Shown: positions 5,286 to 59,174 of the stretch, piece after piece
How positions within the stretch are numbered: position 1 is the first letter of the stretch
Layout of the letters: each line of letters starts with the position of its first letter
Source of the DNA: Malacoraja senta
Lineage: Eukaryota
Direction: 5' to 3'
Length of the DNA: 64,000 nucleotides
Assembly: GCA_038087875.1 (NCBI GenBank)
Contig: CM075989.1
Span: 620,001 to 684,000 of the forward strand
Made by a program: the position numbers and the translations under genes
Notes under the pieces: generated by a model
What the model was told of the DNA's origin: nothing
Database searches by the model: none
What the model saw: the letters and a program-made list of their open reading frames with translations, nothing else

Positions 5286-8200
5286 ATTTTACTTCGGAGT
5301 CACGTGGAGGGATTACGTGAAGACCCCGTCCAGCACGCATGCGCGACATTAGCGTTCACGCAGTGCAACAGCGACGACCGGGAGTACAGGCGCTCCCGCT
5401 ACACGTCGGTGAAAACTAAACAGCGGACCATCAGGTAAGTCTTACACTGAGGTCGTAATCCGCAAGCTGTGCTCTGCTCTCTATTCCAGAGGAACTGGGA
5501 ACAGGAGCAGCACGGCAAAGGAAGAAAACCGCCCCCCGTTCGACTCCAACAGAACGGGAGTGTTCCATCAGTGGGGGGCGAGAGGCGGCACCTGGACCGC
5601 ATATGCTGCGGTCCACCCTCATCGAGACCGAGCCGAGCCCAGTCCCGCTAGCGCAGCCTGATGAGCGGCAGCGGGCTGGAAGAAAAGTTTAAACAAACAA
5701 ACAAACAAACAAACCGGCCGGTTATGTCTGACTCCGATGAGGAGGGTCCGCCTTAGAGCGGCAGAGCTAGCCGCCTGAGCCGAATGAAAAGGCTCATGGA
5801 GCAACTGCTCCAGCGAGACTTGCTTCAGGAGCTACAGCAGTCTCGCCAGGGGGATCAGGCACTCCCACAGCAGTGCTCTATAAATGCACTGGCCATCGCT
5901 TTCCCCTCAAAGCAGGGCAGCGTTGGCGACCAGGGCTGGGCTGGTCAGGAAGAGGGGTCATTGGCTGAAGATGTCGGGAGTACGCTTGGGGTACAGGATC
6001 AGGAAGAGCTGCTGGGTGTGGAGATCCGCTACGTGGTTTCACCACGAGCAGGGCGGCCATTGGAGCCAAAACTGGCGGCCAGCATCAACCACCTGTCCCT
6101 CAAACCCCTACAAGACAGGTACTTAATGAGGCACTAGAGCTGGAAAACTGCAGTTCGCTCAATGTACCGGCTGTTAACAGCCAAATCTGGGGGGGGGGGG
6201 GGACAGAGTATCCGGAACCAGGAGCTAAAATCCTCAAGCTCCTGACGACAGGGATAACAGCCTATGCTCGTTCCGTGGATGGGGTGGATATGACCACAAA
6301 CCAGCAAGACACTCTGGCTCTGCTGTGCTACACCCAATATGAGATAAATAACCTCCGCAAGGAGAGAATAAGACCTGCCCTCAATCCCAGGTTTGCAGGA
6401 CTGTGTAAAACACCGGCCTCAGAGCCGCAGATCCTGTTATTAGGAAGGACAAGTGAAAGACCTGGAGGAGGAGTCCAAAGCATTTGGCCTCATGAGGGCA
6501 GGCCCCGGAACGAGCAGACCCACACAAAAAACCAGACGGCAGTACCCCACCGCGTCCACCAGTCAAGGTCAAATTTATGTCACTGGTGAAAGCTCGGGGT
6601 CCGCATACTATCCCCGAAAGCCTTTTTAGGCCAGGGCCCAGAGCGGACCCCATGGAAAATGCGCCACCCCCAATCAGCAGTACATCAACAGTACATCCAG
6701 CAGTATAACGACCGATGAACAAACGGAAGAAAGGAACACTACCATAACCATGGAGGTAGGTGGGTTTGGTTCCTACCAGCATGTAAATGGGGAACTGTAC
6801 TAACAGGAGGTGTCTCACGAATGATAGTTATATACTTAACAGTATTCGGGGATACAAAATAGAGTTCATTCACGAAAACATGCCACCAGTTCAGCACGTA
6901 CCCAAAGGGTCTTTACCCTCTCAGTCAAAGAGAACTAGAGGCTCAAGCAGAACTGGTGAGGTTACTTACAAAGGGTGTCATTGAGAAATCCAAACATGAT
7001 CCTTTGGAATTTGTCTCAAATATATTTACCAAAAGTAAAAAAGATGGTGGATGTCGCATCATCATTGACTTAACCTCACTAAATACCTTTGTTAAGTATG
7101 TACATTTCAAAATGAAAACATTTGTAACTGCTAAACAACTGATTGCCAAAGGATACTTTATGGCAAGCATTGATCTAAAAGATGCCTACTATTCAGTACC
7201 CATTCACAAGGGTCATCGCAGATACCTGAAAATTTACCTGGATGGGGCAACTATGGCAGTATAAAGTATTGCCTAATGGGTTGACATCAGCCTTAGACTA
7301 TTTACCAAGATATTAAAACCAGCCTTGGCAACATTAGCGAAACAAAGACATATTGTCATGGCGTATCTTGATGATATCCTAATAGTTGGCAAAACCATGG
7401 AGTTGGCTAAATCAGCTGTATTAGCTACCAAATAATAGTTTGAAACCCTGGGTTTGTCATACATCCAGATAAATCTAAGTTGACGCCATCCACAACTATG
7501 GACTATCTGGGATTCAATTAACTCAATCCACATGTCTGTAACGTTGCCAAAAGGTAAAGCAGCAGAATTGGCACAGATGTGCAACAATTTAATGGTAAGC
7601 AATCGACCAACCATCCCACAAGTGGCAAGAGTAATTGGCAAAATGGTAGCAGCATTTTCAGCTACACAATTTGGACTCCTGCACTATCAGCACCGACAAA
7701 GGGCAAAAGTACAGGCGTTGAAACGACATGCAGGTCACTTTGACAGATCCATGAAACTACCCATTGAAGCAATATCAGAGTTACAATGGTGCATATAACA
7801 CATTTGGCATAGTTCCAGCCCTATCATCATCAATAACCCAACGTTAACTATACAAACAGATGCCAGTGCTCAAGGCTGGGGAGCAACTAATACCATATCC
7901 AGCACAGGTGGTAGATGGACTAACCTAGACTCGTCTTTACTACAAACACTGGGCATAAATTATTTGGAAATGTTGGGTGCGTTTTATGGTTTTAAAGCAT
8001 ATTCTAGGAATATGCACAACTTGCATGTTCATTTACAAATTGATAAATATCACGGTGGTGGCCTATATTAACCATATGGCCGGAATAAAATCGATATCAT
8101 GTGACAATTGGGTCAACACAATCTGGTAATGGTGGGTCGATAGACATATTTGGCTATCAGCAACTTACCTACCAGGTAAGCTAAATACAGTGCCAGGTCA

Positions 8201-10119
8201 TGCAAATTCAATGATAAACACCAAATGGATGTTAAATCCTAGAGCTTTGCTAAAATTACAAACCAATATGGCACACCAGATATCGATCTCTTTGCATCCA
8301 GACTAAATCACCACGTACCAATGTATGTCCCTTGGGAACCACACCCTGAGGCAGCAGCGATAGATGCATTCGCGCTGAACTGGGGGACAGATTTCTTCTA
8401 TGCTTTTTCCCCTTCTGCCTTAATCTGTAGGGTACTACGCAAAATACAGATGGACTCTGCTTCAGGTATTTTGATAGTACCAACTGGCCTACACAGCCAT
8501 GATTCCCAGTGGTCCTCGACATGGTCATCGACACTCCTATGACCTTTCCCAGTAGCCCAGACCTATTGACGCACCCTGTATCAGGCATAAGTCATCCATG
8601 CCATGCCAAAATTAACCTACTGGGTTGCAGATTATCAAAAGACCACTGCTGGGACTGGGATTGTCTGACAGGACCATCAACATGATGACACCGTATGTCC
8701 ACCAGGAAACAATACCTATCGAGCATCAGGAAGTGGGAAAGATACTGCTCGACTACTGGGACAACGTACTCATCTGCAACCATAACCAATGTACTGGAGT
8801 TCCTGGGGAGCCTTCACCATAATGAAGGATTGAGCTACAGCGCCATCAATACTGCCAGACGTGCGCTGTCAGCCTACTTAAAACAGGTGCCAGGACAACA
8901 GGCCATAGGGTCTCACCCGCTGGTGATCAAACTCATGAGGAGTATCGTCAACTCCAACCCTCTTAGACCTAGGTATACACAAATCTGGGATGTCAGTGTG
9001 GTCCTGACATACCTAAGGGGATGGTCCCCAGCCAGGTCTCTCACCCTGGAAAAGCTAACCCTGAAAACGGTCATGCTGATGCTACTAGTCTCAGCACAAA
9101 GAGTCCAGTCCCTCCACTTACTGCGACTGGACAACATGGTTATAACACCAGACCGGGTCTCATTCACCATTCAGGAGCTGCTAAAGCAGAGCAAGCCAGG
9201 AACTTGAGTCCTAGTTATGGATTTCCGGGCATACCCACCTGACCTACGGTTGTGTGTCATGACTCACTTATTAACTTACATCAACACAACAAGAGATTCT
9301 CGAGGGAGAAGGGAAAAAAAAAATATATATATATATAAATAAATAAATAAATAAATAAATTAAAAAGCCTTATGGGTCAGCCACAAGAAACCTCAAGGTT
9401 GGGTGTCGAGCCAAACCATCTCGAGATGGCTCAAGCAGGTACTGGGAGCTGCTGGAGTAGATACTGATGTATATACATCTCACTCCACCAGGGCAGCATC
9501 CACATCGGCGGCTAAAAGAATGAACATGGAGAAAACGTTCCAAACGTTCTACCACAAGCCGCTAGCAGAACCTGTGTTATTTGCAGAAAGAGTTTTAAAA
9601 TCTGCAAAATTATATAATTTAAGCCCGGGGGAGCATTTTGTCTTTTGTTATTGTTTAATAGATACCATTATTGTTTACAAACAGATTATGGTTGATTACG
9701 ATAACATACTTCCTCCCTTGAATGACTTCGGCAGCGAGTGAAGTATGAACTGTTACACGGTTTGAAATCACAGAGCTTTGAAGTCTTCACGAAGTCACTC
9801 ACGTGACTCCGAAGTAAAATAGTAAGATTAAACGAGAACTTACCAGTTTGAAGTTTGATCTGTATTTTATGAGGAGTTACGATGAGGGATTACGTGCCCT
9901 CCGCTCCCACCCTCAAATATATAGATCAACAGGTATCTTAGTTCTCCTTTTCTTTACTATGTTTATTTCAATTATTGTGTTTCCTGTGATTCCACACCGC
10001 TGCTTTGAAGAATGTCGCGCATGCGTGCTGGACGGGGTCTTCACGTAATCCCTCATCGTAACTCCTCATAAAATACAGATCAAACTTCAAACTGGTAAGT
10101 TCTCGTTTAATCTTACTAT
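5283..10119 (+). mobile_element. DIRS1-like tyrosine-recombinase retrotransposon, full termini, disrupted ORFs
   Basis: ITRs at 5307-5350 and 10011-10054; internal complementary region 9800-9896. RT DLKDAYYSVP and AYLDDILI, RNase H IQTDASAQGWG, MTase-like DIDLFASRLN...DAFALNW, YR SAQRVQSL and HSTRAAS. Confidence 0.93.
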
Positions 10120-14039: not shown

Positions 14040-15116
14040 TCAAACTCTTCCACCAATACTTTTGCAATGGTGAAGATGGACCCACGCATTCCTTCCTTCT
14101 ACCTTAACAGCAGTCGGGGTCATCAGGAGAACCTGATAAGCTCCCTCCCACTGAGCCTCCAAACCTTTCCTTACCCAATTCTTCGCCATCACAAAATCAC
14201 CAGGCTTGACCTTGATGGAAGAAACCAAGGGAGGTAATTCACTGTGTACTGCTCGCACCCTCAAATGCAAATCTCTTAGTGGCAGAGTCAAGGTCAGAAC
14301 ATAGTTGGTCATCTCTGTAGTCATGTGATGGAAGATGACAACCTTTGGGGTATTTTGGTTCCACAGGGTTCTTAAGGGACATCCATGCACAATTTCAGCT
14401 GGGCCAAGTCTTATTTTCCCTGCAGGCGTGACACATATCTGAAACAAAGCTTTAGGGAGTAATTTAATCCAACTATTTCCTGTCTCCAACTTTAATTTAG
14501 CCAATTTAGTTTTTTCAGCCTGATTTGCCCTTTCGACAATTCCAGCAGCCTGTGGTCGATAAGCACAGTGCAGTTGTTGCTGGATGCCCAGATGTTCACA
14601 GAATTCTTTATTAATATGCCCAATGAAATGAGGACCATTGTCAGAGCTAAGCCGAATTGGAATACCGAATCTGGGGATAATTTCTCGCATAAGCACCTTG
14701 ACAACAGTAGACACTTTGTTATCAAATGTTGGGTAGGCCTCAATCCATTTGCTGAATACATCAACAATCACAAGTACATATCCATATCCTTGGCACTTCT
14801 CTTGCTCGGTGTAATCCATCTGAAGAGTTTCAAAGGGACCCATGCGCAAAGGTGTTCTCCCATCCTCGCGACCCACTCCTTTCCCAGGATTATATTTCTG
14901 ACAAATAATACAGCAGCTACTCACTTTATGGGCCAAAGTCTGTAATCTTGGATGCCGCCAAGTAGCTGAAAGAGCTTGTATGATACAAGTCTGCCCTGCC
15001 AGAGTGACCCACAATCCTGACATGCAATCTATTGTACATCCAAGCTGTTTCCATAATCTTATATCCCCTTCAGGAGCTTCCTCCTGCAACTGAATGATTT
15101 CCTGGATGGTTCGCAT
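14040..15116 (-). mobile_element. pol: Class I (gamma/epsilon-like) endogenous retrovirus integrase remnant
   Basis: CIIC, PFETLQMDY (D), FGIPIRLSSDNGPHF (D), HCAYRPQAAGIVERAN (E), C-terminal WEGAYQVLLMTPTAVKVEG..WVHLHHCK. The HH half of the zinc finger appears deleted; 5' end truncated. Confidence 0.9.
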
Positions 15117-15145
15117 TGGCTTTTCTGAGGGAGACTTTTGTTACA

Positions 15146-15775
15146 AATCAAGTCAAGTCACATTTATTTATATAGCACATTTAAAAAACAACTCTCGTTG
15201 GCCAAAGTGCTTTACATTTGTTATAAGAATAGCACAACAAAACAAACTACATACATATATACATGTAGCCCTCACAGAGGACGTCAGGAAAGGCTTGGGA
15301 GTATAGATAAGTCTTTAGTCTTGACTTAAAAGAGTCGATGGAGGGGGCAGTTCTGATGGGAAAGGGGATGCTGTTCCACAGTCTAGGGGCTGCAACCGCA
15401 AAGGCATGGTCGCCCCTGAGCTTATGCCTAGACGTGGGATATTCAGCAACCCCAAGTCGCGGCCGATCTGAGGGGCTTGGAGGTGGAGTGGTGAGTGAGA
15501 ATACTTTTTATGTAGGAGCGGGCAAGCCCATAGAGGGCAATGGAGGAGGATCTTGAAGTTCATACGGAACTGCACCGGGAGCCAGTGGAGAGAGGCCAGT
15601 ATCGGGGTGATGTGGTCCCTTTTTCGGGTGCCCCGTCAGAAGTCTCGCTGCGGTGTTTTGGACCAGTTGCAGGCAGGACAGGGAAGATTGGCTGATGACA
15701 TTGCAGTAATCTAGGCGGGAGGAGATGAATGTGTGGATGATCTTTTCGAGGTCATCAAACTGGAGGAAATTAGGT
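15146..15775 (-). mobile_element. L2-clade LINE 3' fragment
   Basis: LEKIIHTFISSRLDYCN...LQLVQNTAARLLTG, then HWLPVQFRMNFKILL; (cttga)n tail. Confidence 0.8.
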
Positions 15776-16418
15776 TTCATACCATGTCAAGCAGTGTGCA
15801 AGGCCACCAAATTCAAATGCAGTTTCATGCCATTTCAAGCAGGGTGCAACGCCACCAAATTCAAATGCAGTTTCATGCCACTTCAAGCAGGGTGCAAGGC
15901 CACCAAATTCAAGTGCAGTTTCATGCCACTTCAAGCAGTGTGCAAGGCCACCAAATTCCAGTGCAGTTTCATGCCATTTCAAGCTGGGTGCGAGGCCACC
16001 AAATTCAAGTGCAGTGTCATACCATTTCAAGCAGGGTGCAAGGCCACCAAATTCAAATGCAGGTTCATGCCACTTCAAGCATGGTGCAAGGCCACCAAAT
16101 TCAAGCGCAGTTACATGTCACTTCATGCCGGGTGCAAGGCCACCAAATTCCAGTGCAGTTTCATGCCACTTCAAGCAAGGTGCAAGGCCACCAAATTCAA
16201 ATGCAATTTCTTGCCACTTCAAGCAGGGAGCAAGGCCCCCAAATTCCAGTGCAGATTCACGGCACTTCAAGCAGGGTGCAAGTCCACCAGATTCAAATGC
16301 AGTTTTATGCCACTTCAAGCAGAGTGCAAGGCCACCAAATTCAAGTTCAGTTTCATGCCAATTCAAGCAGGGTGCGAGGCCAACAAATGCAAGTGCAGTT
16401 TCAAACCATTTCAAGCAG
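15774..16418 (+). repeat. 48-bp tandem repeat, about 13 units (caaggccaccaaattcaaatgcagtttcatgccatttcaagcagggtg)
   Basis: Direct tandem units; 16-aa periodicity in the ORF track. Confidence 0.95.
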
Positions 16419-16848
16419 TTTGTTTTGTTTATGCTATTCTTATAACAAATGTAAAGCACTTTGGCCAACGAGAGTTGTTTTTTAAACGTGCTATGTAAAT
16501 AAATTTGAAGTGAGGGCTACATGTATATATGTATGTAGTTTGTTTTGTTTATGCTATTCTTATAACAAATGTAAAGCACTTTGCCCACGGTCTAAGCATA
16601 AGCTCAGGGGCATTCCTTTCCCATCAGAACTGCCCCCCTCCATCGACTCTTTTAAGTCATGACTAAAAACTTATCTATACTCCTAAGCCTTTCCTGACGT
16701 CCCCTGAGTGTGGGCTACATGTATATACTGTATGTATGTAGTTTGTTTTGTTTATGCTATTCTTATAACAAATGTAAAGCACTTTGGCCAACGAGAGTTG
16801 TTTTTTTAAATGTGCTGTGTAAATAAATTTGACGAGTTGACTTGACTC
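16417..16848 (+). repeat. Three partial copies of the L2 3' tail, inverted relative to 15146-15430
   Basis: gtttatgctattcttataacaaatgtaaagcactttg occurs three times and matches the reverse complement of about 15200-15240. Confidence 0.85.
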
Positions 16849-19800
16849 ATTTGAATTTGGTGGCCTTGCACCCCTGCGTGAAATGGTATGAAACTGCATT
16901 TGAATTTTGTGGCCTTGCACCCTGCCTGCAATGGTATGAAACAGCATTTGAGTTTGGTGGCCTTGCACACTGTGCTTGAAATGTATGCAACTGCATTTGA
17001 ATTTGGTGGCCTTGCACCCTGCATAAAATGGTAAGAAACTGCATTTGAATTTGGTGGCCTTGCACCCTGCTTGAAATGGTATGAAACTGCATTTGAGTTT
17101 GGAGGCCTTGCACCATGCTTGAAATGGTATGAAACTGCATTAGAGTTTGGTGGCCTTGCACCCTGATTGAAATGGTATGAAACTGCATTTGAGTTTGGAG
17201 GCCTTGCACCCTGCTTGAAATGGTATGAAACTGCATTAGAGTTTGGTGGCCTTGCATCCTGATTGAAATGGTATGAAACGGCATTTGAATTTGGTGGCCT
17301 TGCACCCTGCTTGAAATGGTATGAAACTGCACTTGAGCTTGGTGGCCATGCACCCTGCTTGAAGTGGCATGAAACGGCACAAATTTGGTGGGCTTGCACC
17401 CTGCTTGACATGATATGAAACCTCATTTGAATTTGGTGGCAGTGCACCCTGCTTGAAATTGTATGAAACCGCATTTAAATTTTGTGGCAGTGCACCCTGC
17501 ATGAAATGGTATGAAACCGCATTTGAATTTGGTGGCCTTGCGTCCTGCATGAAATGGTGTGGAACTGCACTTATTTGCTAAATTTAAGATGGAGTTAGAT
17601 GTGGCCCTTGTGGCTAAATGGATCAGGGGGTATGGAGAGAAGGCAGGTACAGGATACTGAGTTGGATGATCAGCCATGATCAGATTGAATGGCGGTGCAG
17701 GCTCGAAGGGCCGAGTGGCCTATTCCTGCACCTATTTTCTATGTTTCTATGTTTCTATGCACTTGAATTTGGTGGCTGTGCACCCTGCTTGAAATGGTAT
17801 GAAACTGCATTTGAATTTGGTGGCCTTGCGCACTGCTTGAAATGGTATGAAACTGCATTTTAATTTGTTGGCCTTGCACCCTGCTTGAAATGGTATGAAA
17901 CTGCATTATAATTTGGTGGCACCCTGCTTGAAGTGGCATGAAACTGCACTGGGGTTTGGTGGCCTTGCACCCTGCCTGAAATGGTATGAAACGGCATTTG
18001 AGTTTGGTAGCCTTGCACCCTGCTTGAAATGGCATGAATCTGCATTTGAATTTGGTGGCCTTGCACCCTGCTTGACATGATATGAAATTTCATTTGAATT
18101 TGGTGGCAGTGCACCCTGCTTGAAATTGTATGAAACTGCATTTGATTTTGGTGGCCTTGCATTCTGCATGAAATGGTGTGAAACCACATTTGAATTTGGT
18201 GGCCTTCCACCCTGCATGAAATGGTATGAAACTGCATTTGAATTTGGTGGCCTTGTACCCTGCATGAAATGGTAAGAAATTGCATTTGAATTTGGTGGCC
18301 TTGCACCCTGCTTGAAATGGCATGAAACTGCACTTGAGCTTGGTCGCCATGCACCCTGCTTGAAGTGGCAAGAAACTGCATGAATTTGGTGGGCTTGCAC
18401 CCTGCTCGACATGATATGAAAGCTCATTTGAATTTGGTGGCAGTGCACCCTGCTTGAAATTGTATGAAACCGCATTTGAATTTGGTGGCCTTGCATCCTG
18501 CATGAAATGGTGTGAAACTGCACTTATTTGCTATATTTAAGAGGGAGTTAGAGGTGGCCCTTGTTGCTAAATGGATCAGGGGGTATGGAGAGAAGGCAGG
18601 TACAGGATACTGAGTTAGATGATCAGCCATGATCATATTGAATGGCGGTGCAGGCTCGAAGGGCCGAATGGCCTGCACCTATTTTCTATGTTTCTATGCA
18701 CTTGAATTTGGTGGCTGTGCACCCTGCTTGAAATGGTTAGAAACTGCAATTGAATTTGGTGGCCTTGCTCACTGGTTGAAATGGTATGAAACTGCATTTG
18801 AATTTGTTGGCCTTGCACCCTGCTTGAAATGGTATGAAACTGCATTTCAATTTGGTGGCACCCTGCTTGAAGTGGCATGAAACTGCACTGGAATTTGGTG
18901 GCCTTGCACCCTGCATGAAATGGTATGAAACTGCATTGAATTTGGCAGCCTTGCACTCTGCATGAAATGGTATGAAACTGCATTTGAATTTGGTGGCCTT
19001 GCACCTTGCATGAAATGGTATGAAGGTGCCTTTGAATTTGGAGGCCTTGCACCCTGCTTGAAATGGCATGAAACTGCATTTGAATTTGGTGGCCTTGTAC
19101 ACAGCTTACAATGGTATGTAACTGCATTTGAGTTTGGTGGCCTTGCCCCCCTGCCTGAAATGGTATGAAATGGCATTTGAGTTTGGTGGCCTTGCACCCT
19201 GCTTGAAATGGTATGAAAGTGCACTTGAGTTTGGTGGCCTCGCATCCTGCATGAAATAGTACGAAACTACATTTGAATTTGGTGGCCCTCCACCCAGCAT
19301 GAAATGGTATGAAACCGCATTTGAATTTGGTGGCCTTGCACCCTACATGAAATGGTAAGAAACTGCATTTGAATTTGGTGGATTTGCACCCTGCATGAAA
19401 TGATATGAAACTGCTTTTGAATTTGATGGCATTGCGCCCTGCATGAAATGGTATGAAATGGCATTTGAATTTGGTGGCCTTGCAACCTGCATGAAATGGT
19501 TTGAAACTGCATTTGAATTTGTTGGCCATGCACACTGCTGGAAATGGTATGTAACTGCATTTGAATTTGGTGGCCTTGCACCCTGCTTGGAATGGCATGA
19601 AACTGCACTTGGATTTGGTGGCCTTGCACCCTGCTTGAAATGGCATGAAAATGCACATGCATTTGGTGTCTTTGCACCCTGCTTGAAGTGGCATGAAGTT
19701 GCACCTGAATTTGGTGGACTTCCACCCTGCTTGAAGTGGCATGAACCTGCACTGGAATTTAGTGGACTTGCTCCCTGCTTAAAGTGGCATGAAACTGCAT

Positions 19801-20080
19801 TTGAATTTGGTGGCCTTGCACCCTGATAGAAATGGCATGAAACTGCATTTGGGTTTGGTGGTCTTGCACCCTGCTTCAAATAATATGAAACTGCATTTGA
19901 GTTTGGTGGCCTTGCACGCTGCTTGAAATGGCATGAACCGGTACTTGAGTTTGGTGGCCTTGCACCCTGCTTGAAATGGTATGAAACTGCATTTAAATTT
20001 GGTGGCCTTGCACACTGCTGGAAATGGTATGAAATTGCATTTGGATTTGGTGGCCTTGCTCCCTGCTTAAAGTGGCATGA
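16848..20080 (-). repeat. 48-bp tandem repeat, opposite orientation, roughly 60 units, with two embedded CR1 3' ends (about 17572-17758 and 18524-18698)
   Basis: gaatttggtggccttgcaccctgcttgaaatggtatgaaactgcattt units. Confidence 0.95.
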
Positions 20081-21267
20081 ACCATATAACCATATAACCA
20101 TATAACCATATAACCATTACAGCACGGAAACAGGCCATCTCGGCCGTTCAAGTCCGTGCAGAACATTTTTTTTTCCTTCTTCCTTCCCCCTAGTCCCATC
20201 TACCTGTACTCAGACCATATCCCTCCATTCCTTTCCTGTTCATATACCCATCCAATCTATTTTTAAAGGATAAAATCAAACCTGCCTCCACCACTTCCAC
20301 ACAGCTCATTCCACACAGCTACCACTCTCTGAGTAAAGAAGTTCCCCCTAATGTTACCGCTAAACTTCTGTCCCTTAATTCTCAAGTCATGTCCCCTTGT
20401 TTGAATCTTCCCTACTCTCAATGGGAAAAGCTTATCCACGTCAACTCTGTCTAACCCGCTCATCATTTTAAAGACTTCTATCAAGTCCCCCCTTAACATT
20501 CTGCATTCCAAAGAATAAAGACCTAACTTGTTCAACCTTTCTCTGTAACTTAGTTGCTGAAACACAGGCAACATTCTAGTAAATCTCCTCCGTACTCTCT
20601 CTATTTTGTTGACATCCTTCCTATAATTAGGCGACCAAAATTGTACTCCATACTCCAGAATTGGCCTCACCAATGCCTTGTACAATTTTAACATTACATC
20701 CCAACTTCTATATTCAATGCTCTGATTTATAATGGCCAGCACACCAAAAGCTTTCTTTACCACCCTATCTACATGAGATTCCACCTTCAGGGAACTATGC
20801 ACAGTTATTCCTAGATCCCTCTGTTCAACTGCATTCCTCAATTCGCTACCATTTACCATGTACGTCCTATTTTGACTTGTCCTGCCGAGATGTAGCACCT
20901 CACATTTATCAGCATTAAACTCCATCTGCCATCTTTCAGCCCACTCTTCCAAATGGCATAAATCTCTCTGTAGACTTTGCAAATCTACTTCCTTATCCAC
21001 AACACCACCTATCTTAGTATCATCTGCATACTTACTAATCCAATTTTCCACACCATCATCCAGATCATTGATGTACATGACAAACAACAGTGGACCCAAC
21101 ACAGACCCCTGAGGCACCCCACTAGTCACCGGCTTCGAACCTGACAAACAGCCATCCACCATTACTCTCGCATCTCCCATTCAGCCACTGTTGAATCCAT
21201 CTTGCTACTCCACCATTAATACCCAACAATTGAATCTTCTTAACCAACCTTCCATGAGGAACCTTGT

Positions 21268-48048: not shown

Positions 48049-48130
48049 ACCTGGAGAGTGGGAAACTGACGGGATATGTGGGATCGGACAATGATGGTGA
48101 AATCGTACTTTTTCCTGTCACTTCTCCAAG
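48049..48130 (+). CDS. Probable leader (signal peptide) exon of Siglec-like copy 2, ATG at 48076 or 48091
   Basis: ttctcttttccag| acceptor; MWDRTMMVKSYFFLSLLQ(G); phase-1 donor G|gtacca. Confidence 0.55.
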
Positions 48131-49470
48131 GTACCATCAGCAACAGCCTGCATGTGTTTATGGCCGACTGTCTGTACATTCTCATGATGGGGAATAACCT
48201 CCATCACTGCCACAACCCTCACTCTCTCTGTACCCCTAAGCTTTGCCCATTTGCTCCCTTCCTACCCACGTGCCTGTCCAAATGTCTTTTAAATGTTGTT
48301 ATTGTACCGGCCTCAACCACTTCCTCTCACAGCTCGTCATATATACCCTCCACGTTTGTGTGAAAAATCTGTCCCTCGGGTCCCCTTTAAATCTTTCCCA
48401 ACTCGCCTTAAACCTGTGGCCTTTAGTTTGAGACTCCCTACAACGGGAGGGGATGTAAAACCTGTCTCTGGTAAGAACAACCTGCTTTCAGCTGGTGCTT
48501 GCTGTATCTGTCACTGCACTCCACCCACCACCGTTCTCACAGGCTGCCAGAGAGACCTTGAGGTCTTCCCCTGGGTCAGTGCATGCGAGTTGCAGCAGCT
48601 GACCCTCAGTAAGAGAGTCAGTTCATGTGCAGTTCACGTTTTCAGAGGCAGAAAAGCACGAGAAGATATTCACACACTTTAGTGTGAACCTCGTAGTGGA
48701 AAGCGATAGGCTGAGAGTTCCAGTCCTCATCGTTAATCCAGATTCCATCTGAAACACGCTATCAAGGGTGGTGGTGGGGAAGATATGATTGTGGCAGTTA
48801 AAAGACTTTTGGATAGGCACATGGTTATGCAGGGAACGGAGGGATATAGATTACGTGCAGGCAGATCGAGTTAGACTCGCCAGCATGTTGGCAGAGACAT
48901 TGTGCACCAAGGGGCCTGGTGTTGTGCTGCATTGTTCTATGTTCTATGTATTCCCCACTTGCCAACTCCCGCAGCACAATATGTAGTGAGGGACATGGAT
49001 AAAGTGAGTGTTCACAGTCTTTGCCCCAGGGTAGACAATGCTCAAACTAGAAGGCTTCAGTTTAAGGTGAGAGGGGAGAGATTTAAAAAAAGACCTCGGG
49101 GGGATCTTTTTCACCCAGACAGTAGTCCACATCTGGAATGAGATGCCAGAGGAACAAAAGGAAGTGGATACAATTACACCTTTAAAATACATTTGGACAT
49201 AAACATGGATAGGAAGCATATGGAGGTATAGGGGCCAAACGTAGGCAAATGACATTAGCGTGGAATACCACTATTATCAGCATGGACAAGGTGGGCTGAA
49301 GGGCCTGCTTCCATACTGTGTAGCTACACGACTACACAATCTGATGAATTTGCACCTTATTCACCACCCCAAACCCACCCTGCCTCTCTGCCCAAATACA
49401 TTGAAAAAGCAGCCGTGTGTAGCAAAGATCCAGTAACCACTATAGCATTTCTCTTTGGTTGCTGCTACTG

Positions 49471-49950: not shown

Positions 49951-51234
49951 TATGTATTCTTTTTTAATTTTTGCTGCACATGTGTAATGTAAAGTTGGGC
50001 ATATTCACTAAGAGAATGACTCAAAGCTGTGATCCACTTCTCTTCTTTAAGCCAGCTCTGAAATGTACTTCTTTTTAAAGAGTTGGTATCTCCCAAATTA
50101 GCTCTGTGTAGGGTTCCTGTTCCACACAAGGCTGGATAAATGGTTCGGCAACAATTATTTCTAACTCAGGGTCAACAAGACCAAGGAACTAATTGTTGAA
50201 TTCAGAAAGGGGAAGTTGGGAAACCAGGTGTCGGTTTTTATTGGTGGGTTGATGGTGGAGAGAGTTAGCAGCTTCAAATTCCTGGATGACCTGTCGTGGG
50301 TGTGCAGCACATTGATCCAATTGTGAAGAAGGCAAACCAGTACCTCTACTTCCTGAGTTTAGGGAGAGTTGGTACACTACGTCTCCGAATACTCCATCAA
50401 ACTTCCACAGATGCACTGAAGAAAGTATCCTGATTGGTTGCATCATGGCATCATGGAGTGTGGCAACTACAATGTCCTGCCTCCAGATGGCAGCATCTAT
50501 CATCAAGGATCCCCATCATGTGGGCCATGCTCTCTTCTCACTGCTACCGACAGGTCGGAGCTACAGAATCCTGTAGTCCCACACCACAGGTCAGCAACAG
50601 CCATGTTACTACTATGGTCAGATTCTTGTACCGACCTACACAACTCTAATACTACTTCAGCAGTGGAACACTACAGACCACCTTGTACTGGCATGGACTT
50701 GGTTTCTTCTATTCTAATTATGTTTTTGCACAAATGGTCTGTTTTTATTGCAGTCTTTCTTTTATAATATTTTGTGTAATTTATGCAAAATGTGTTTTTT
50801 GTGTGTTTCTCCATGTGCCTGTGATCCTGCTGATTTTCACTACTCCTATACCTCACCCTACGTGTGTATATGACAATAGACTTGAACTCCTTCCACCTCT
50901 TCCCATGTCCCTCATCACCACTTCAGATGCCCCTCTCTCCTCAGTATCTATCTGATTCCTCACAAATCCATCTCTGTTATTCATCACAAGCCCTTCTAAT
51001 GGGAATGAGGTGGCATTTCCTCGACTGCATAGAGGAATTTCTCATGAATTCCCCACTGGATTTATCAGGTCTGTCACAACTGGGGAACCAGAGACCTCTC
51101 CACCATTGCAGTGCTCCCTCAAGCCGAGAGGCCCAGTGCAAGGGCAAGTTAACAACATCTAAACTGCCAGCTGTGCTGTTCCCTCACAGGGCAACGTCTG
51201 GTGACATTTAACTGAAAGTTTTTCTGTTTATTAG

Positions 51235-51526
51235 ATTTCACAGATAAACCCTCAATATTCCCTGTTGAATCTGTGGAAGGAAAGACTGTGAATGTAACCT
51301 GCACCTTCAACACCACATGTGATGGAACAGCTCCCAACTTAACCTGGGTCACCCCCACTGATGAACCACTGTCAGTCTCACAGTGTAACTCAGTGGGGTA
51401 ACAGTCTGACATATACTTCTGTTGTGTCCCTGACCCCAGCGCTCCAACATCACGGGCAAAACCTCACCTGCCGATTCAGATACTTAACTGTTTCATCGGA
51501 GCAGACCCTCACACTGACTGTGCAAT
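51235..51526 (+). pseudogene. Siglec-like copy 2, C2 Ig exon with 2-bp frameshift deletion
   Basis: Near-identical to 648-941, but tctcacagtg replaces tctcacacagtg at about 51380. Confidence 0.85.
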
Positions 51527-52125
51527 GTAAGTATGAAGATTATTTATTGTACACAAACAACAATAGTCGGCATTGTACACAGCATGATTCCACAGCAACA
51601 TTGTAAAACTGGCAGAAACGTCTGTCTTTTCCCAAGTAACTCTGGCAAGGACACTTGGGATACTCCTCTCCTGCTTCAGGAGACACTCCCACTGCACTGC
51701 CCCTCCTGCTGGGCGACGCTCCCTCAATACTGCCCCTCCCCAGGGTTGATGCTCCCTCAGTATTGCCCCTTACAAAGTGTGGAGCTCCCACTGTAGTGGC
51801 CCTCCCAATGTGGTGCTCTCTCAGTACCGCCCCTCCCACAGTGCGGCACTCCCTCAGTACTGCCCACCAGCCAGCACAGCTCTCTCTCACTAGTGACCCT
51901 CCCACAGTGTGGCACACCCTCAACACTGCCCCATTAACAGTATGGAGCTCCCTCAGCACTGCCCCATAATATGCTGCATTATGCCCTTTCTATCATATAG
52001 CAATTTACTCGGTTGCCTGAATTATGACAGATAAAAACTTGCATGAATATCAGACGTTTTCCACCAGTGATCTCTAAAGATGCCCCACAACTGGTGCCCA
52101 GGCACTGATCTGTATTTGCTTTTAG

Positions 52126-52407
52126 ATTCCCCACAGAATCTCTCAATCACTTCTTCCGACAAGGTGAACAATTCCTGGGTCAGTATAAAGGAAGGGAACG
52201 CTACAGCGATCCTCTGCTCTGTCCAGAGTTTCCCAGCATCTAACCTGACATGGAGACATCTCGATGTCACACTGAACAGAACAAGTTCCAACAACGAGCT
52301 GTGGTTGGAGTTCCCTCAGGTGACACCGCGCCTCACTGGGGTCTATCATTGTGTGGCGGAGAATAAACATGGGGCATCGGAGAGGACCGTGACCCTCGCC
52401 ATAGAAC
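52126..52407 (+). pseudogene. Siglec-like copy 2, second Ig exon (copy a)
   Basis: Paralog of 1541-1822; open frame; ag/gt retained. Confidence 0.85.
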
Positions 52408-53322
52408 GTGAGTTCTATGGTGAGGGTCACGGTCCTCTCCGATGTCCCATGTTTATTCTCCAAAGAGAAACTTGAGAGGTGTTGTAAATTACCTAAGCTG
52501 TTATACCTAAGCTTTTATCAATACATAAGGGAGAAATGGGTAACTAGAGAGAGAATGGGAGCCATCAGGAATCAAGGCGGTAACCTCTGTGTGGAGCCAC
52601 AGGAGATGTGAAAGGTCATTAATGAGTATTTCTCCTCGGTATACACTGAGGAGAAACACAGGAGGACGGAGGAACTTACGGAAGTCAATGGAAGTGTCTT
52701 GAGAGCAGTTCATGTTAAGGTCGAAGAGGTGCTGAAGGTACTGTCGTGTATGAAGGTAGACAAATCTCTCGGGCCTGATCAGATATTTATGAGGACATCG
52801 TGGGAAACTAGCGAGGAATTTGCCAGAGCCCAGGCTGAAATTTACGAGTCATCTTTAAATACAGGAGAGGGGCCGGAAGACTGGAGGGTGGCAAATGTTG
52901 TGCCTCTATTCAACAAGGGCTGCAGGAAAATGCTGGGAACTATAGGCCAGTGAGCTTAACATCTGTCGTTGGAAAGTTACTCAAGAGTATTCTGAGGGAT
53001 AGGATATACAGGTATTTGGATGGACAAAGGCTGATTAGGGATAGTCAGTATTGGTTTGTACATGGGCGGTCGTGTCTCACAAATCTGATTGAGTATTTTG
53101 AAGACGTGACTTAAAAGGTCCATGAGGGTAGAGCTGCAGATGTTGTTTATATGGACTTTAGCAAAGCATTCGTCAAGGTTCGGCATGGTAGGCTGCTCTG
53201 GAATGTTAGATCGTCTGGGATCCAAGGAGAAATAGCTGAAGGGATAGAAAATTGGCTTAAATGAAGGAAACAGAGGGTGATGATGGAAGGTTCCCCAGGC
53301 CCTGATCTGTATTTGCTTTTAG

Positions 53323-53604
53323 ATTCCCCACAGAATCTCTCAATCACTTCTTCCGACAAGGTGAACAATTCCTGGGTCAGTATAAAGGAAGGGAACGCTA
53401 CAGCGATCCTCTGCTCTGTCCAGAGTTTCCCAGCGTCTAACCTGACATGGAGAAATCTCGGTGTCACACTGAACAGAACAAGTTCCAAAAATGAGCTGTG
53501 GTTGGAGTTTCCTCATGTGACACCACACCTCACTGGGGTCTATCAGTGTGTGGCGGAGAATAAAGATGGGACAGCGGAAAGGACCGTGACCCTCGCCATA
53601 GAAC
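53323..53604 (+). pseudogene. Siglec-like copy 2, second Ig exon (tandem copy b)
   Basis: Third copy of this exon; open frame; ag/gt retained. Confidence 0.85.
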
Positions 53605-53790
53605 GTGAGTGAACACACCGACGTGTCTCTCCAAAGACGAACATAAGAGGTGTTGTAAATTACCTAAGCTGTAATTACCTAAGCTTTTATCAATACATAA
53701 GGGAGAATGGAAGTGTCTTGAGAGCAGTTCATGTTAAGGTTGAAGAGGTGCTGAAGGTACTGTCGTGTATGATGGTAGACAAATCTCTAG

Positions 53791-56700
53791 TATCCGAACT
53801 GAACGAGGAGGACTCAAATGCAGGCTCAGACACAGGGCAGATCAGTTTTCAGAGTTTAATCGGTCCAAGTCGGTACACAGGTAAGTAAAAACGGAGGCAA
53901 CAGTACAATCTAGGAGCAGGCAAAAACAGTGGTTGAAAACAGGCACTGGTCGAGATAACAAGGTCAAAAGATTTCTAGAGCTGGCACGAGGTGATACAAA
54001 GTAACATACACAACGAACTGGCAATGAGAACTAAAACACAAAGGGCTTAAATACACAGCCTAACGGGATAACGAGACACAGGTGAAACACATCAGGGCAG
54101 GGCCAACAGGGCCCACGAGGGGAAACGACATGACAGGAAATGGGACCTGAAACGAGAGGAGATATGAGACACCAAAATAAAACAAGAATGCAACCAATAA
54201 TAATAAAAACAATAAGAAACAGAAACTAGATCAAACATGAGACCTGACAGCACCCCACCCCCCCCCCCCCTCCACGGCCGGCTCCTGATGGCCCAGGATC
54301 TTCAGGATGTTGGCGCCGATATTCCCTGATAAGTTCAGGGTCGCATATGTTGCGAGTCGGCACCCAAGACCGCTCCTCAGGTCCATAACCCTCCCAATCC
54401 ACAAGATACTGATGACCACGACCACGGCGGCTCATCCCCAGCAACCGGCTGATCGTAAACACTGGACCCCCATCAAGGAGCCGGGGAGGCGGAGGGGGTT
54501 TGGAGGCAGGGTCCAGAGGACTCTCCTTAAATGGCTTCAGTCGGGAGACATGGAAAGTAGGGTGGACCCTCATGGCACGGGGGAGTTGGAGACGAACCGC
54601 CACAGGATTGATGACCTTCGATATGGGGAAAGGACCAACAAAACGAGGAGCCAGCTTCCGGGATTCCACTCTCAGAGGTAAGTCTCGAGTGGAGAGCCAC
54701 ACCTTGTGGCCAGGCGAGTATACTGGAGCCGGCGTTCTTCCCCGGTCAGCCATCCTCTTGTAACGCGCAGAACTGCGCAACAGCATCTGACGAGCCCCAT
54801 TCCAAACCTTGTGACAGCGATGGATGAGAGCCTGAGCGGAGGGCACACTGGACTCCTTCTCCACAGCAGGGAACAATGGCGGTTGATAACCATAGGCACA
54901 CTGGAATGGAGAGAGACCAGAGGATGAGCAAGGAAGTGTGTTTTGTGCATACTCCACCCAAATAATGTGTTTGCTCCAAGTTGAAGGGTTCTGTGCCACC
55001 AAGCACCGCAGTCCTGTCTCCAATTCCTGGTTAAGGTGTTTAGTCTGTCCATTGGATTCCGGGTGATAACCAGATGTAAGGCTGACCATGGTGTCCAACA
55101 GAGTACAAAACTCCTTCCAAAACCTGGACACGAACTGAGGCCCCCGGTCAGACACAATGTCTCTGGGAAATCCATGAATTCGAAAAACATGAGACAACAT
55201 GACCTCCGCCGTTTTCTTGGCGGAGGGAAGCTTGTGCAATGGAATGAAGTGGACCATCTTAGAAAATCTGTCCACTACAGTCATGACTGGTGTTACCTTC
55301 AGAAGAGGGCAGGCCCGTGACAAAGTCCATGGAGATGTCTGACCAGGGGCGTGAGGGGACAGGCAGCGGACTCAGGAGGCCAAAGACAGGCCGACGTGAG
55401 GTCTTGTTCTGAGCACAAATACTGCAGGCAGCGACATACTCCTTAATCCCCCTCTCCATGGAAGGCCACCAAAACCGCTGTTTGGCCACAAACAGGGTTC
55501 GGCGGACACCGGGATGACAGGAGATCCGAGACGTATGAGCCCAGTGAATCACCTGTGAGCGAAGAGACTCGGGAACAAACAGATGATTAGAGGGACACCC
55601 TAGCGGGGACTGACTACCTGCAGTAGCCTCGGAAACTCTCTTCTCAATCTCCCAAGTAACCGCCCCAACAACACAGGAAGCAGGCAGAATGGGAGTTGAA
55701 ACCTTAGGGGCCGGGTCAGGATCAAACTCTGGAGAGAGCATCAGGTTTGCCATTCTTGGCAACAGGGCAGTAAGACAGTACAAAATCAAACCGATTAAAG
55801 AAGAGAGCCCACCTTGCTTGCCGTGAGTTGAGGCGTTTGGCTGACTTGATGTATTCCAGGTTCTTGTGGTCTGTCCAAACTAGAAACGGCTGCTCGGTGC
55901 CCTTCAACCAGTGTCTCCATTCCTCCAAGGCTGCTTTAACCGCTAACAGTTCACGGTTACCCACATCGTAATTTCTCTCAGCAGGCGAAAGTTTTTTTGA
56001 GAGGAAAGCACAGGGACGCAGTCGACCATCTGAGGGGGATTTCTGGGAGAGTACGGCCCCGATGCCCATACCCGAGGCGTCCACCTCAACCACGAACTGA
56101 AATGCCGGGTCAGGGTGAACCAGGATGGGGGCTGAGGTGAAGCTCCTCTGGAGTCTCATAAATGCAGTTTCTGCTTGAGGGGACCAAGGGAAAGGCACGT
56201 GGGGTGAGGTGAGAGCATGAAGTGGTGCAGCAGTGACACTAAAGTTCCGGATAAACTTCCTATAAAAATTAGCAAACCCAAGGAACCCCTGAAGTCGCTT
56301 ACGACTGGAGGGTGTAGGCCAGTTGACCACAGCACTGACCTTGTTCGGGTCCATCTGTATACCAGCAGGTGATACAACATAACCAAGGAATAGAACAGTG
56401 TTAGCATGAAATTCACATTTCTCAGCTTTCACAAACAGATCATTCTGTGCAAACGTTCCAGCACCTGGTGTACATGCTGCACATGGGAAGTTTCGTCTGG
56501 AGAAAAGATCAAAATGTCATCAAGGTACACAAACACAAATTTGTTCAGCATGTCACGTAATACATCATTAACCAGGCCTTGAACAACTGCTGGAGTATTA
56601 GTAAGACCAAACGGCATGACCATATATTCATAATGACCACTGGATGTGTTAAACGCAGTTTTCCATTCATCCCCCTCCCTTATCCTCACCAGATGATAAG

Positions 56701-59174
56701 CATTTCTAAGATCTAACTTAGTGAATACTTTAGCGTCTTTTAACAGTTCAAATGCAGAGGAGATCAGAGGAAGAGGGTACCTGTTCTTAACAGTAATGTC
56801 ATTGAGTCCTCTGTAGTCAATGCAGGGCCGAAGTGTTTTATCCTTTTTATCCACAAAGAAGAATCCAGCTCCTGCAGGTGAAGAGGAAGGTCTGATGATC
56901 CCAGCAGCAAGGCCGTCGCCAATGTACTTTTCCATGGTGAGCTGCACAGGTGAAGACAAGGAGTAGAGATGACCCTTAGGAGGCGCTGTACCTGGCAGAA
57001 GGTTGATGCAGCAGTCGTACAGTCTATGCGGCGGAAGAGATGTGGCCTTGGCCTTGTTGAACACCTCCTTCAGGTCCAGATAACACGAGGGAACATTGGT
57101 GAGATCTGGAAAGTCCCCCTCCCTTGAATGGGGAGGCTGCCGGAGGGTGGTCCTGGAAGACCCCAGCAAACTGCTCCTCGACAGATCTTTCATAGGCTCA
57201 GGAGAAGAATCATGCACCAGACAGGTGAGTTTACAGTTATTCCCCCAGGAAATTACTTCCCCAGTACCCCAGTTCATGTGAGGATTATGGTCAGACAGCC
57301 AAGGGAGCCCCAAAACCAGAGGATGAAGAGTCGAGGAGGTGAAACCTGATGGTCTCAATGTGATTACCTGCCACGACGAGTTGAACAGGTTGAGTTCGGT
57401 GAGTTACCCTGCACAGTAGGCGCCCATCCAGTGCATCCAGCGCCCATCCAGAGGATTTTGAAGCTGTTCACGTTCCAGCTTGAATTCATCAGCCAAGCGA
57501 ATGTCCAAGAAGTTCTCATCTGCCCCAGAATCAACCAAAGCCTGCAGGGAGTGACGCTGGGAATGCACCAACAATTGTACAGCCGTGAGTTGATGAGAGG
57601 AAAGGCTCATAGGAGCGGTACAACTCACCAATGTCCTCTCTTTCATTGGTGAGTTTTATCTTTTACTGAACAGCTGTTCAACAAATGTCCCAGTTCACCA
57701 CAGTAAAAACACCTCCCCTTACAGGCGGCGCTGCCGCTCCTCCGGGCTGAGTTAGGCTCGTCCCACCTGCATGGGCTCCTCCGAAGAGACAGGTGGCGCT
57801 GTAGGCTGACTGGACCGGTCGAGAGGGAAGAAGTCCTGACCGGAAGACGAAGGGCGATGCTGCCGCCACTGCTGGGAGGAGGACCGAACTGCAGCCGATC
57901 TCCTCTCTCGCTCTCTTTCTCTGAGCCTAGCGTCAATCTGGACAGCCAGGGAAATCATAGACTCGAAGTCGGAAGGCAGAGTTAGTGGAGCCAACTGATC
58001 TTTGATAGCTTCAGACAATCCATTGCGAAAAGCATCCAACAAAGCAGCCTCATTCCATCCACTCTTAGCAGCAACAGTTCGAAAGTCAATAGCAAAATCC
58101 ATAACTGTGCGATTACCTTGTTTCATGGAGACCAGGTTCTGTGAAGCCTCTCGGCCAGGATTGGAGTGATCAAACGTGCGGGACAGAGCTTCCATGAACA
58201 GGACCGACGCCTGGCAAACAGGAGAATTCCGAGACCATTCCGCCGTGGCCCAAGCCTCCGCTCTGCCCGACATGTGTGTGATGATAAAGGCTACCCTTGA
58301 GCGTTCTGATGGAAAGGAAGCCGCTTGAAGTTTGAAATGCAGTCCACACTGAATCAAAAAAGGTCTACACTTCTCCGATTCCCCCGAGAAGTGTTCCGGT
58401 CTTGCCAGGTGGACGAATGGAGATGCTGCGGCAGCCGTGGCCATCGGAGCTCCTGGAGACACAGACAAGGAAACAGACTCGGCCGGCACGGGAGCCGCGG
58501 CAGGGAAAAAAGAATCCAGCCGAGCAACCAGGTGTTCAAACCAGGAACTTAAAGTGTTCACCTGTGAGCCGATGTCCGCCTGGAAGCCCTGCTGACGCTC
58601 GCCGAGATCCCGGAACCCGGCGAAGATCGAGGTGAGTTGACCCTCGTAATGCGAGATGCGCTCCTCTTGCTTATGGAGCGCTGCGCGAAAAAGATCAGAG
58701 CCCGCTGAGTCCATTGTTGGCCTGTTCGTAATATCAGAACTGAACGAGGAGGAGGACTCAAATGCAGGCTCAGACACAGGGCAGATCAGTTTTCAGAGTT
58801 TAATCGGTCCTAGTCGGTACACAGGTGAGCAAAAACGGAGGCAACAGTACAATCTAGGAGCAGGCAAAAACAGTGGTCGAAAACAGGCACTGGTCGAGAT
58901 AACAAGGTCAAAAGATTTCTAGAGCTGGCACGATGTGATACAAAGTAACATACACAACGAACTGGCAATGAGAACTAAAACACAAAGGGCTTAAATACAC
59001 AGCCTAACGGGATAACGAGACACAGGTGAAACACATCAGGGCAGGGGAAACGACATGACAGGAAATGGGACCTGAAACGAGAGGAGATGTGAGACACCAA
59101 AATAAAACAAGAATGCAACCAATAATAATAAAAACAATAAGAAACAGAAACTAGATCAAACATGAGACCTGACA
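53791..59174 (-). mobile_element. Ty3/Gypsy chromovirus (Tf1/sushi group), near complete, frameshifted
   Basis: LTRs at 53791-54249 and 58732-59174; TSD TCTAG; G-rich PPT 54250-54273. Gag MDSAGS... with CFYCGELGHLLNSC, protease LVDSGA, RT YLDD, RNase H VEVDASG, integrase H..H..CSIC and SDRGPQF, GPF motif, chromodomain [17 protein letters not shown]. Confidence 0.96.

Follow-up and report, generated by a model that had tools for sequence, protein, structure and literature searches.

Several described systems come close to the locus reported here. Short-range template switches are known from primates, where, according to the available portions of PMC5453318, they follow a four-point model that includes the order 3-2-1-4, a type that together with its mirror makes up 31% of the high-confidence human-chimp events. 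The hairpin described here resembles those events in being an apparent one-step inverted repeat with few identical bases at the switch points; unlike the events covered in those portions, it was found by paralog comparison, comes from a cartilaginous fish, and has a splice donor as its loop. It also resembles the hairpins of switch-born microRNAs (miRNAs), which are perfect stems made from unstructured sequence within a transcription unit and later modified by point mismatches (extracts of PMC10710096), but it has a stem longer and a loop shorter than those preferred, an arm antisense to paralogous coding exons, and a pseudogene host. As in the splice-site-overlapping miRNAs of PMC6097652 and PMC3794580, it straddles an exon-intron junction; those miRNAs are expressed and processed, and their counterpart here is a predicted structure that carries the donor in its loop. 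The pseudogene psiPPM1K likewise has an inverted repeat complementary to its cognate gene, but it is, in the excerpted text of PMC3616710, a retro-pseudogene that is transcribed and from which small RNAs have been detected, whereas our host is a pseudogene that arose by duplication and carries a single short stem. TSL2 of SMN2 (PMC1802598, as excerpted) is another structure that lies over a donor and is predicted to hinder U1; ours is far more stable, and therefore unlikely to be tunable, and sits in a dead gene, so that it does not control the isoforms of a functional gene as a donor-masking regulatory stem-loop would. Our literature search for comparable events listed one unrelated paper, and the data sets of PMC10710096 may hold donor-overlapping cases. 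Among the papers listed on siglec-like genes of skates, none dealt with this cluster.

The window is the whole stretch of Malacoraja senta DNA that was analyzed, 64,000 nucleotides at positions 620001 to 684000 of contig CM075989.1 (C13:620001-684000). Positions with no prefix refer to the window, and features lie on the plus strand unless stated otherwise. The original prediction described a 50-bp inverted repeat with a splice donor in a GNRA loop, and direct comparison bore this out: the arms at 52358 to 52407 and 52412 to 52461 match at 48 of 50 positions, and the loop GTGA (52408 to 52411), which is donor +1 to +4, is closed by a C-G pair. The left arm is the last 50 nt of immunoglobulin (Ig) exon 4 (copy a) of a siglec-like gene, here gene 2, and is the putative switch template. 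Both arm mismatches (52374/52445 and 52398/52421) are G-U pairs in the sense RNA, as had been claimed, leaving the stem fully paired, and the suggested RNA folding check gave a minimum free energy of -105.9 kcal/mol (z score, -16.5), with equal stability in none of 200 shuffles. The loop junction has one exact copy in the whole assembly. It had further been proposed that the paralogous exons ending at 1822 and 53604 lack the inverted arm; this held, also at two further donors outside the window, so that the arm is absent from all four close paralogous donors. Past the donors of distant paralogs, it was seen in 0 of the 25 listed. The existence of the hairpin in the assembly is confirmed, being supported at the assembly level and by internal evidence.

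The best protein matches of the upstream exon were skate siglec-like proteins of Leucoraja erinacea (92% and 89%), and its PDB matches were CD33 and Siglec-8/10/5. When one of the L. erinacea proteins (P0002) was mapped onto 264 kb of the contig, four gene copies were obtained: gene 1 (C13:608172-631121), gene 2 (C13:668076-685669), which hosts the hairpin, gene 3 (C13:698735-717183), and the inverted gene 4 (C13:388843-419677, minus strand). Exons 3 to 7 of the intact gene 1 occupy 648 to approximately 11124 of the window, with exon 4 at 1541 to 1822 and no hairpin. In-silico splicing of genes 1 and 3 gave open full-length seven-exon frames in the order leader, V-set, C2, Ig, transmembrane, and tyrosine-motif tail, the full architecture of elasmobranch CD33/siglec-like receptors such as P0002 (92% identity on exon 3). 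Unlike these receptors, gene 2 is frameshifted and has no V-set domain or tail. About 2.8 kb upstream of its signal-peptide exon (48076 to 48130) is common to genes 1, 3, and 4. Gene 4 has lost its exon 3 donor and 14 bp of its transmembrane exon and has a stop at the start of its last exon; judged from these lesions, it looks dead as well, which would make two of the four copies pseudogenes. Related Ig exons form a large family at 82 to 84% identity on contigs C2317, C4403, C73, C362, C4714, and C3526.

Four lesions other than the hairpin were found in gene 2. The ligand-binding V-set exon is gone in a deletion of about 6 kb, inside which a 71-bp inverted remnant of that exon is left (48677 to 48747, minus strand). 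The complex junction (48660 to 48750) combines a 7-bp fold-back, the inverted 71-bp piece, and the ~6-kb jump, and on this structure it is a putative second, multi-switch rearrangement of the replication type in gene 2. Exon 3, which encodes the CD33-type C2 domain (51235 to 51526), has 292 nt, compared to 294 in genes 1 and 3; the 2-bp loss at about position 51378 causes a frameshift with a stop soon after. This loss lies in a CA run and taken alone could be an assembly slip, but the two exon deletions and the acceptor change described below are unlikely to be assembly errors. The acceptor of the transmembrane exon (exon 5) is changed from AG to TG at C13:685543. Tail exons 6 and 7 are absent; in 194 kb, they match only genes 1 and 3. 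Thus, gene 2 has no V-set exon, intact frame, usable transmembrane exon, or tail, whereas genes 1 and 3 have all of these, and by its predicted structure gene 2 as assembled cannot encode a functional receptor. Exon 4 copy a (52126 to 52407), an Ig domain (Pfam Ig_3, I-set), is an open frame in itself. It is followed by a tandem duplicate (53294 to 53707) containing exon 4 copy b (53323 to 53604) with the parental acceptor and donor. A Gypsy-type long terminal repeat (LTR) retrotransposon (53788 to 59174; listed with no strand) lies inside the duplicate downstream of copy b. It was inserted later than the exon 4 duplication, and its LTRs differ at 6 of 426 sites.

With gene 3 as the parent, the sequence is parental up to donor +6, continues with 43 bases of the exon end in inverted orientation (52414 to 52456), and then returns to the parental intron through a 5-base microhomology (52457 to 52461). 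The original prediction had placed the rejoining at tctcc, which stands, and the replacement at about 20 bp, which is corrected here: exactly 17 parental intron bases were lost and 43 gained (net, +26). The GT at 52412 and 52413, parental donor +5 and +6, is complementary to the last two exon bases and presents a 2-base seed for the outward switch. The four-point model, in the order 3-2-1-4, leaves 1 mismatch in the 43 copied bases, while a linear alignment has 26 gap positions plus mismatches. An inverted copy of nearby sequence accordingly explains the insertion better than the linear alignment, the parent state is arm free, and the parental flank resumes at 52457. As sequence comparison can indicate it, the proposed origin by one short-range template switch during DNA replication, with microhomology at both points, is supported. 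The match of the two exon-end bases to donor +5 and +6 would have seeded the switch, and a switch seeded there makes the first four bases of the donor the loop. Nascent-strand and opposite-strand templates would give the same outcome; the inter-strand route has been argued for primate template switches in the portion of PMC5453318 consulted. Within 15 nt past the return point, the sequence departs from gene 3 or other paralogs at three more positions, which the model leaves unexplained; a search for a local template for them found none, the best being a 9-mer. Exon 4a itself is a mosaic, its state being that of copy b at two sites in the 5' part and that of only gene 3 at 52377, which makes it likely that gene conversion has affected this exon. 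Copying from gene 3 may also have occurred.

After the switch, the arms would have decayed at the neutral rate. At 52374, the right arm keeps the state common to gene 3, copy b, gene 4, and all 25 distant paralogs listed, and it is the exon arm that changed, to the state of gene 1; at 52421, the new arm carries a CpG C>T change. The resulting divergence of 2/50 (4%; 95% confidence interval, 0.5 to 13.7%) compares with 2.3 to 5.8% for noncoding paralog divergence and gives no apparent sign of constraint on the stem, with 50 sites offering little power. Across five paralog comparisons, which did not include the LTR pair, 108 of the 204 substitutions were transitions. A transition in a base pair yields G-U in half of the cases, and the chance that two of two mismatches would be G-U is about 0.07 by a post hoc hand calculation, which is not significant. 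GTRA is the start of the splice donor consensus. Pairing of the final two bases of the exon with donor +5 and +6 means that a switch seeded there has GTRA as its loop, and every GTRA is a GNRA. Selection for a GNRA loop was considered and rejected in favor of a by-product of the donor consensus, as four of the six donors of gene 1 begin with GNRA.

As a background sample, 60 spaced 10-kb stretches of the contig (598,800 bases) were searched for stems of at least 25 bp with loops of up to 20 nt. Of the 18 hairpins obtained, 17 belonged to a high-copy repeat (41 to 297 matches each) and 1, scored at 32 bp, was low copy; the last (sample locus L073:6880-7050) has a core of 32 bp and an outer stem that is longer but imperfect. 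Seven hairpins lie in the 264 kb surrounding the cluster, namely, the one in gene 2, a private one in a CR1 copy, and five assigned to a repeat family, one by BLAST and four by eye. This very abundant family of short repeats produces long near-perfect hairpins with variable centers about once per 35 kb (at 16 sample loci, as well as at C13:618413 and 690725). A 41-bp hairpin in intron 2 of gene 3, a candidate for a second private switch, was rejected as a member of a repeat. The CR1 hairpin (C13:576022-576086) is a perfect 29-bp stem with a 7-nt loop ~96 kb from the gene 2 hairpin. It replaced parental sequence in the same manner and is not found in the one other CR1 copy aligned, which points to a second private switch scar of the same type. 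Long hairpins are common here, and the 50-bp nonrepeat stem is at the long end. Elsewhere in the window, a 48-bp tandem repeat array with blocks in both orientations was noted at 15700 to 20100, and open reading frames at 5969 to 9204 and 14043 to 15140 resemble, by eye, a DIRS-type element (reverse transcriptase and tyrosine recombinase) and a retroviral-type integrase.

In our judgment, the hairpin was probably left by one short-range template switch in a broken siglec-like pseudogene and is likely neutral; since four other lesions disable the host copy, it is likely to be an ordinary one-step DNA copying error with no job. Three observations stand against this: its length, in that no hairpin in the 599-kb sample, out of 18, combined low copy number with a stem of at least 50 bp; the preservation of pairing by both arm substitutions; and the upstream region shared with the intact genes, because of which gene 2 may be transcribed. 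A fold-back chimera of sequencing or assembly would fit a single copy in the assembly, and no contig crossed the loop among the matches listed from four public runs. In the comparison of those runs with 51150 to 53750, however, CR1 repeats dominated, none of the 32 pieces listed covered 52349 to 52589, and no listed joint lay at the loop. A chimera would copy the present arm, but the arms differ by two transitions, one an older state shared among paralogs and the other a CpG change; these states of the new arm, together with a parental intron that resumes cleanly after the loss of 17 bases, make an artefact highly improbable. The computed cost of opening donor positions -5 to +9 is 12.1 kcal/mol, compared to 6.0 to 7.6 kcal/mol in the donors of copy b, gene 1, and gene 3 (an extra 4.5 to 6), and that of -10 to +14 is 21.9 versus 8.3 to 13.1 kcal/mol; the cost is reached 12 to 16 nt past the donor. 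For the bare -3 to +6 window, the values are 7.2 versus 5.1 to 6.1 kcal/mol, an extra of only 1 to 2. The predicted U1 duplex is -5.8 at the hairpin donor versus -6.6. Occlusion of the donor is therefore a likely prediction of the model if the copy is transcribed: the stem would form within 12 to 16 nt past the donor and hinder U1, and splicing would shift to copy b or fail. To that extent, the block of U1 with exon skipping or use of copy b put forward in the original prediction stands; the implied change in a receptor does not, given the four other lesions. No protein consequence would follow, as the transcript lacks the V-set exon, runs into a frameshift stop in the preceding exon, and is left with neither a tail nor a transmembrane acceptor that could be used.

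These energies also bear on whether the switch hit a working gene and, by blocking the exon 4 donor, was its first or a contributing inactivating lesion, that is, a loss-of-function splice mutation rather than a regulator. The hairpin could have preceded the other lesions and helped to kill gene 2, arm divergence being as old as the paralog splits, and SMN2 TSL2 (PMC1802598, in the part available) is a precedent. Four other lesions exist, though, any of which may have come first; copy b supplied a parental donor, and hairpins at splice sites need not alter exon inclusion (PMC6097652, as excerpted). With the small extra cost in the bare donor window, this makes such a history unlikely. The earlier suggestion of a selected splicing switch in a functional receptor, with exons 4a and 4b as mutually exclusive alternatives, has open frames and acceptors in both exon copies in its favor but is contradicted by the lesions unless all four are assembly errors, and we regard it as scarcely credible. 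Another alternative is that the gene 2 pseudogene is transcribed and that Drosha/Dicer cut the hairpin to a 3' arm product silencing the intact neighbors, above all gene 3. The 3' arm would pair with the exon end of gene 3 through 49 Watson-Crick pairs and 1 G-U pair, with the basal 40 nt uninterrupted, and with gene 1 through 45 Watson-Crick and 3 G-U pairs, although any inverted copy of an exon would necessarily be complementary to its paralogs in this way. The 2.8-kb upstream region is kept, and two features expected of a pseudogene source of endogenous small interfering RNA, a pseudogene host and complementarity to an intact paralog, are present. A downstream CNNC is a motif for miRNA processing, and it is absent from the 29 nt downstream. 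The best match to a known miRNA family in Rfam scored 56.7 bits against a gathering score of 95, and none of the eight matches listed reached gathering, all being far under it; those to MIR1513, MIR9471, and mir-451 were rejected as shape only. Precedents exist in a pseudogene hairpin that yields endogenous small interfering RNA (PMC3616710) and in switch-born miRNAs, 5 of 99 intragenic ones of which overlap exons (PMC10710096), in the extracts of both sources. According to the corresponding portions of PMC10710096 and PMC10576077, however, a stem of ~35 bp and an apical loop of at least 10 nt are preferred, as opposed to 50 bp and 4 nt here, and 57 of 6,054 primate switch hairpins (0.9%) are annotated as miRNA (PMC10710096). 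The hairpin has poor Microprocessor geometry, and the small-RNA idea is disfavored by geometry and base rate; processing with silencing of the neighbors is very unlikely. Equally doubtful is the fuller scheme in which one replication error would have turned a dead duplicate into a trans-acting silencer, with the donor blocked, the stem kept in the nascent RNA, and a small RNA matching the mRNA of a neighbor. If true, a coding exon in an immune-receptor cluster of a vertebrate would have given rise, by a single mutation, to a self-targeting small-RNA gene. Should small RNAs be made, the locus would carry greater weight, as the prediction names the target exactly (gene 3) and the event that gave rise to the hairpin has been reconstructed in full.

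As a probable neutral scar in an immune-receptor duplicate that is decaying, the hairpin offers a clean textbook example of a template switch whose parent state can still be read in four paralogous exons. It indicates that such switches take place in cartilaginous fish and can strike splice donors and that a GNRA loop over a donor calls for no particular explanation. Where an exon ends in AC and the donor reads GTRAGT, a 2-bp seed is already in place around a cGNNAg loop, and such donors could be switch hot spots. When the parental donor region was folded as DNA under nearest-neighbor parameters, no stable seed hairpin resulted, so that the idea draws only on the stable DNA loop class cGNNAg as excerpted from PMC2275088. 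At the parental exon 4 donors (1823 to 1831 and 53605 to 53613), an in-frame stop lies just inside the intron, and a transcript that kept this intron would encode a soluble form with three domains; in the hairpin copy, this stop is lost and 20 codons are added.
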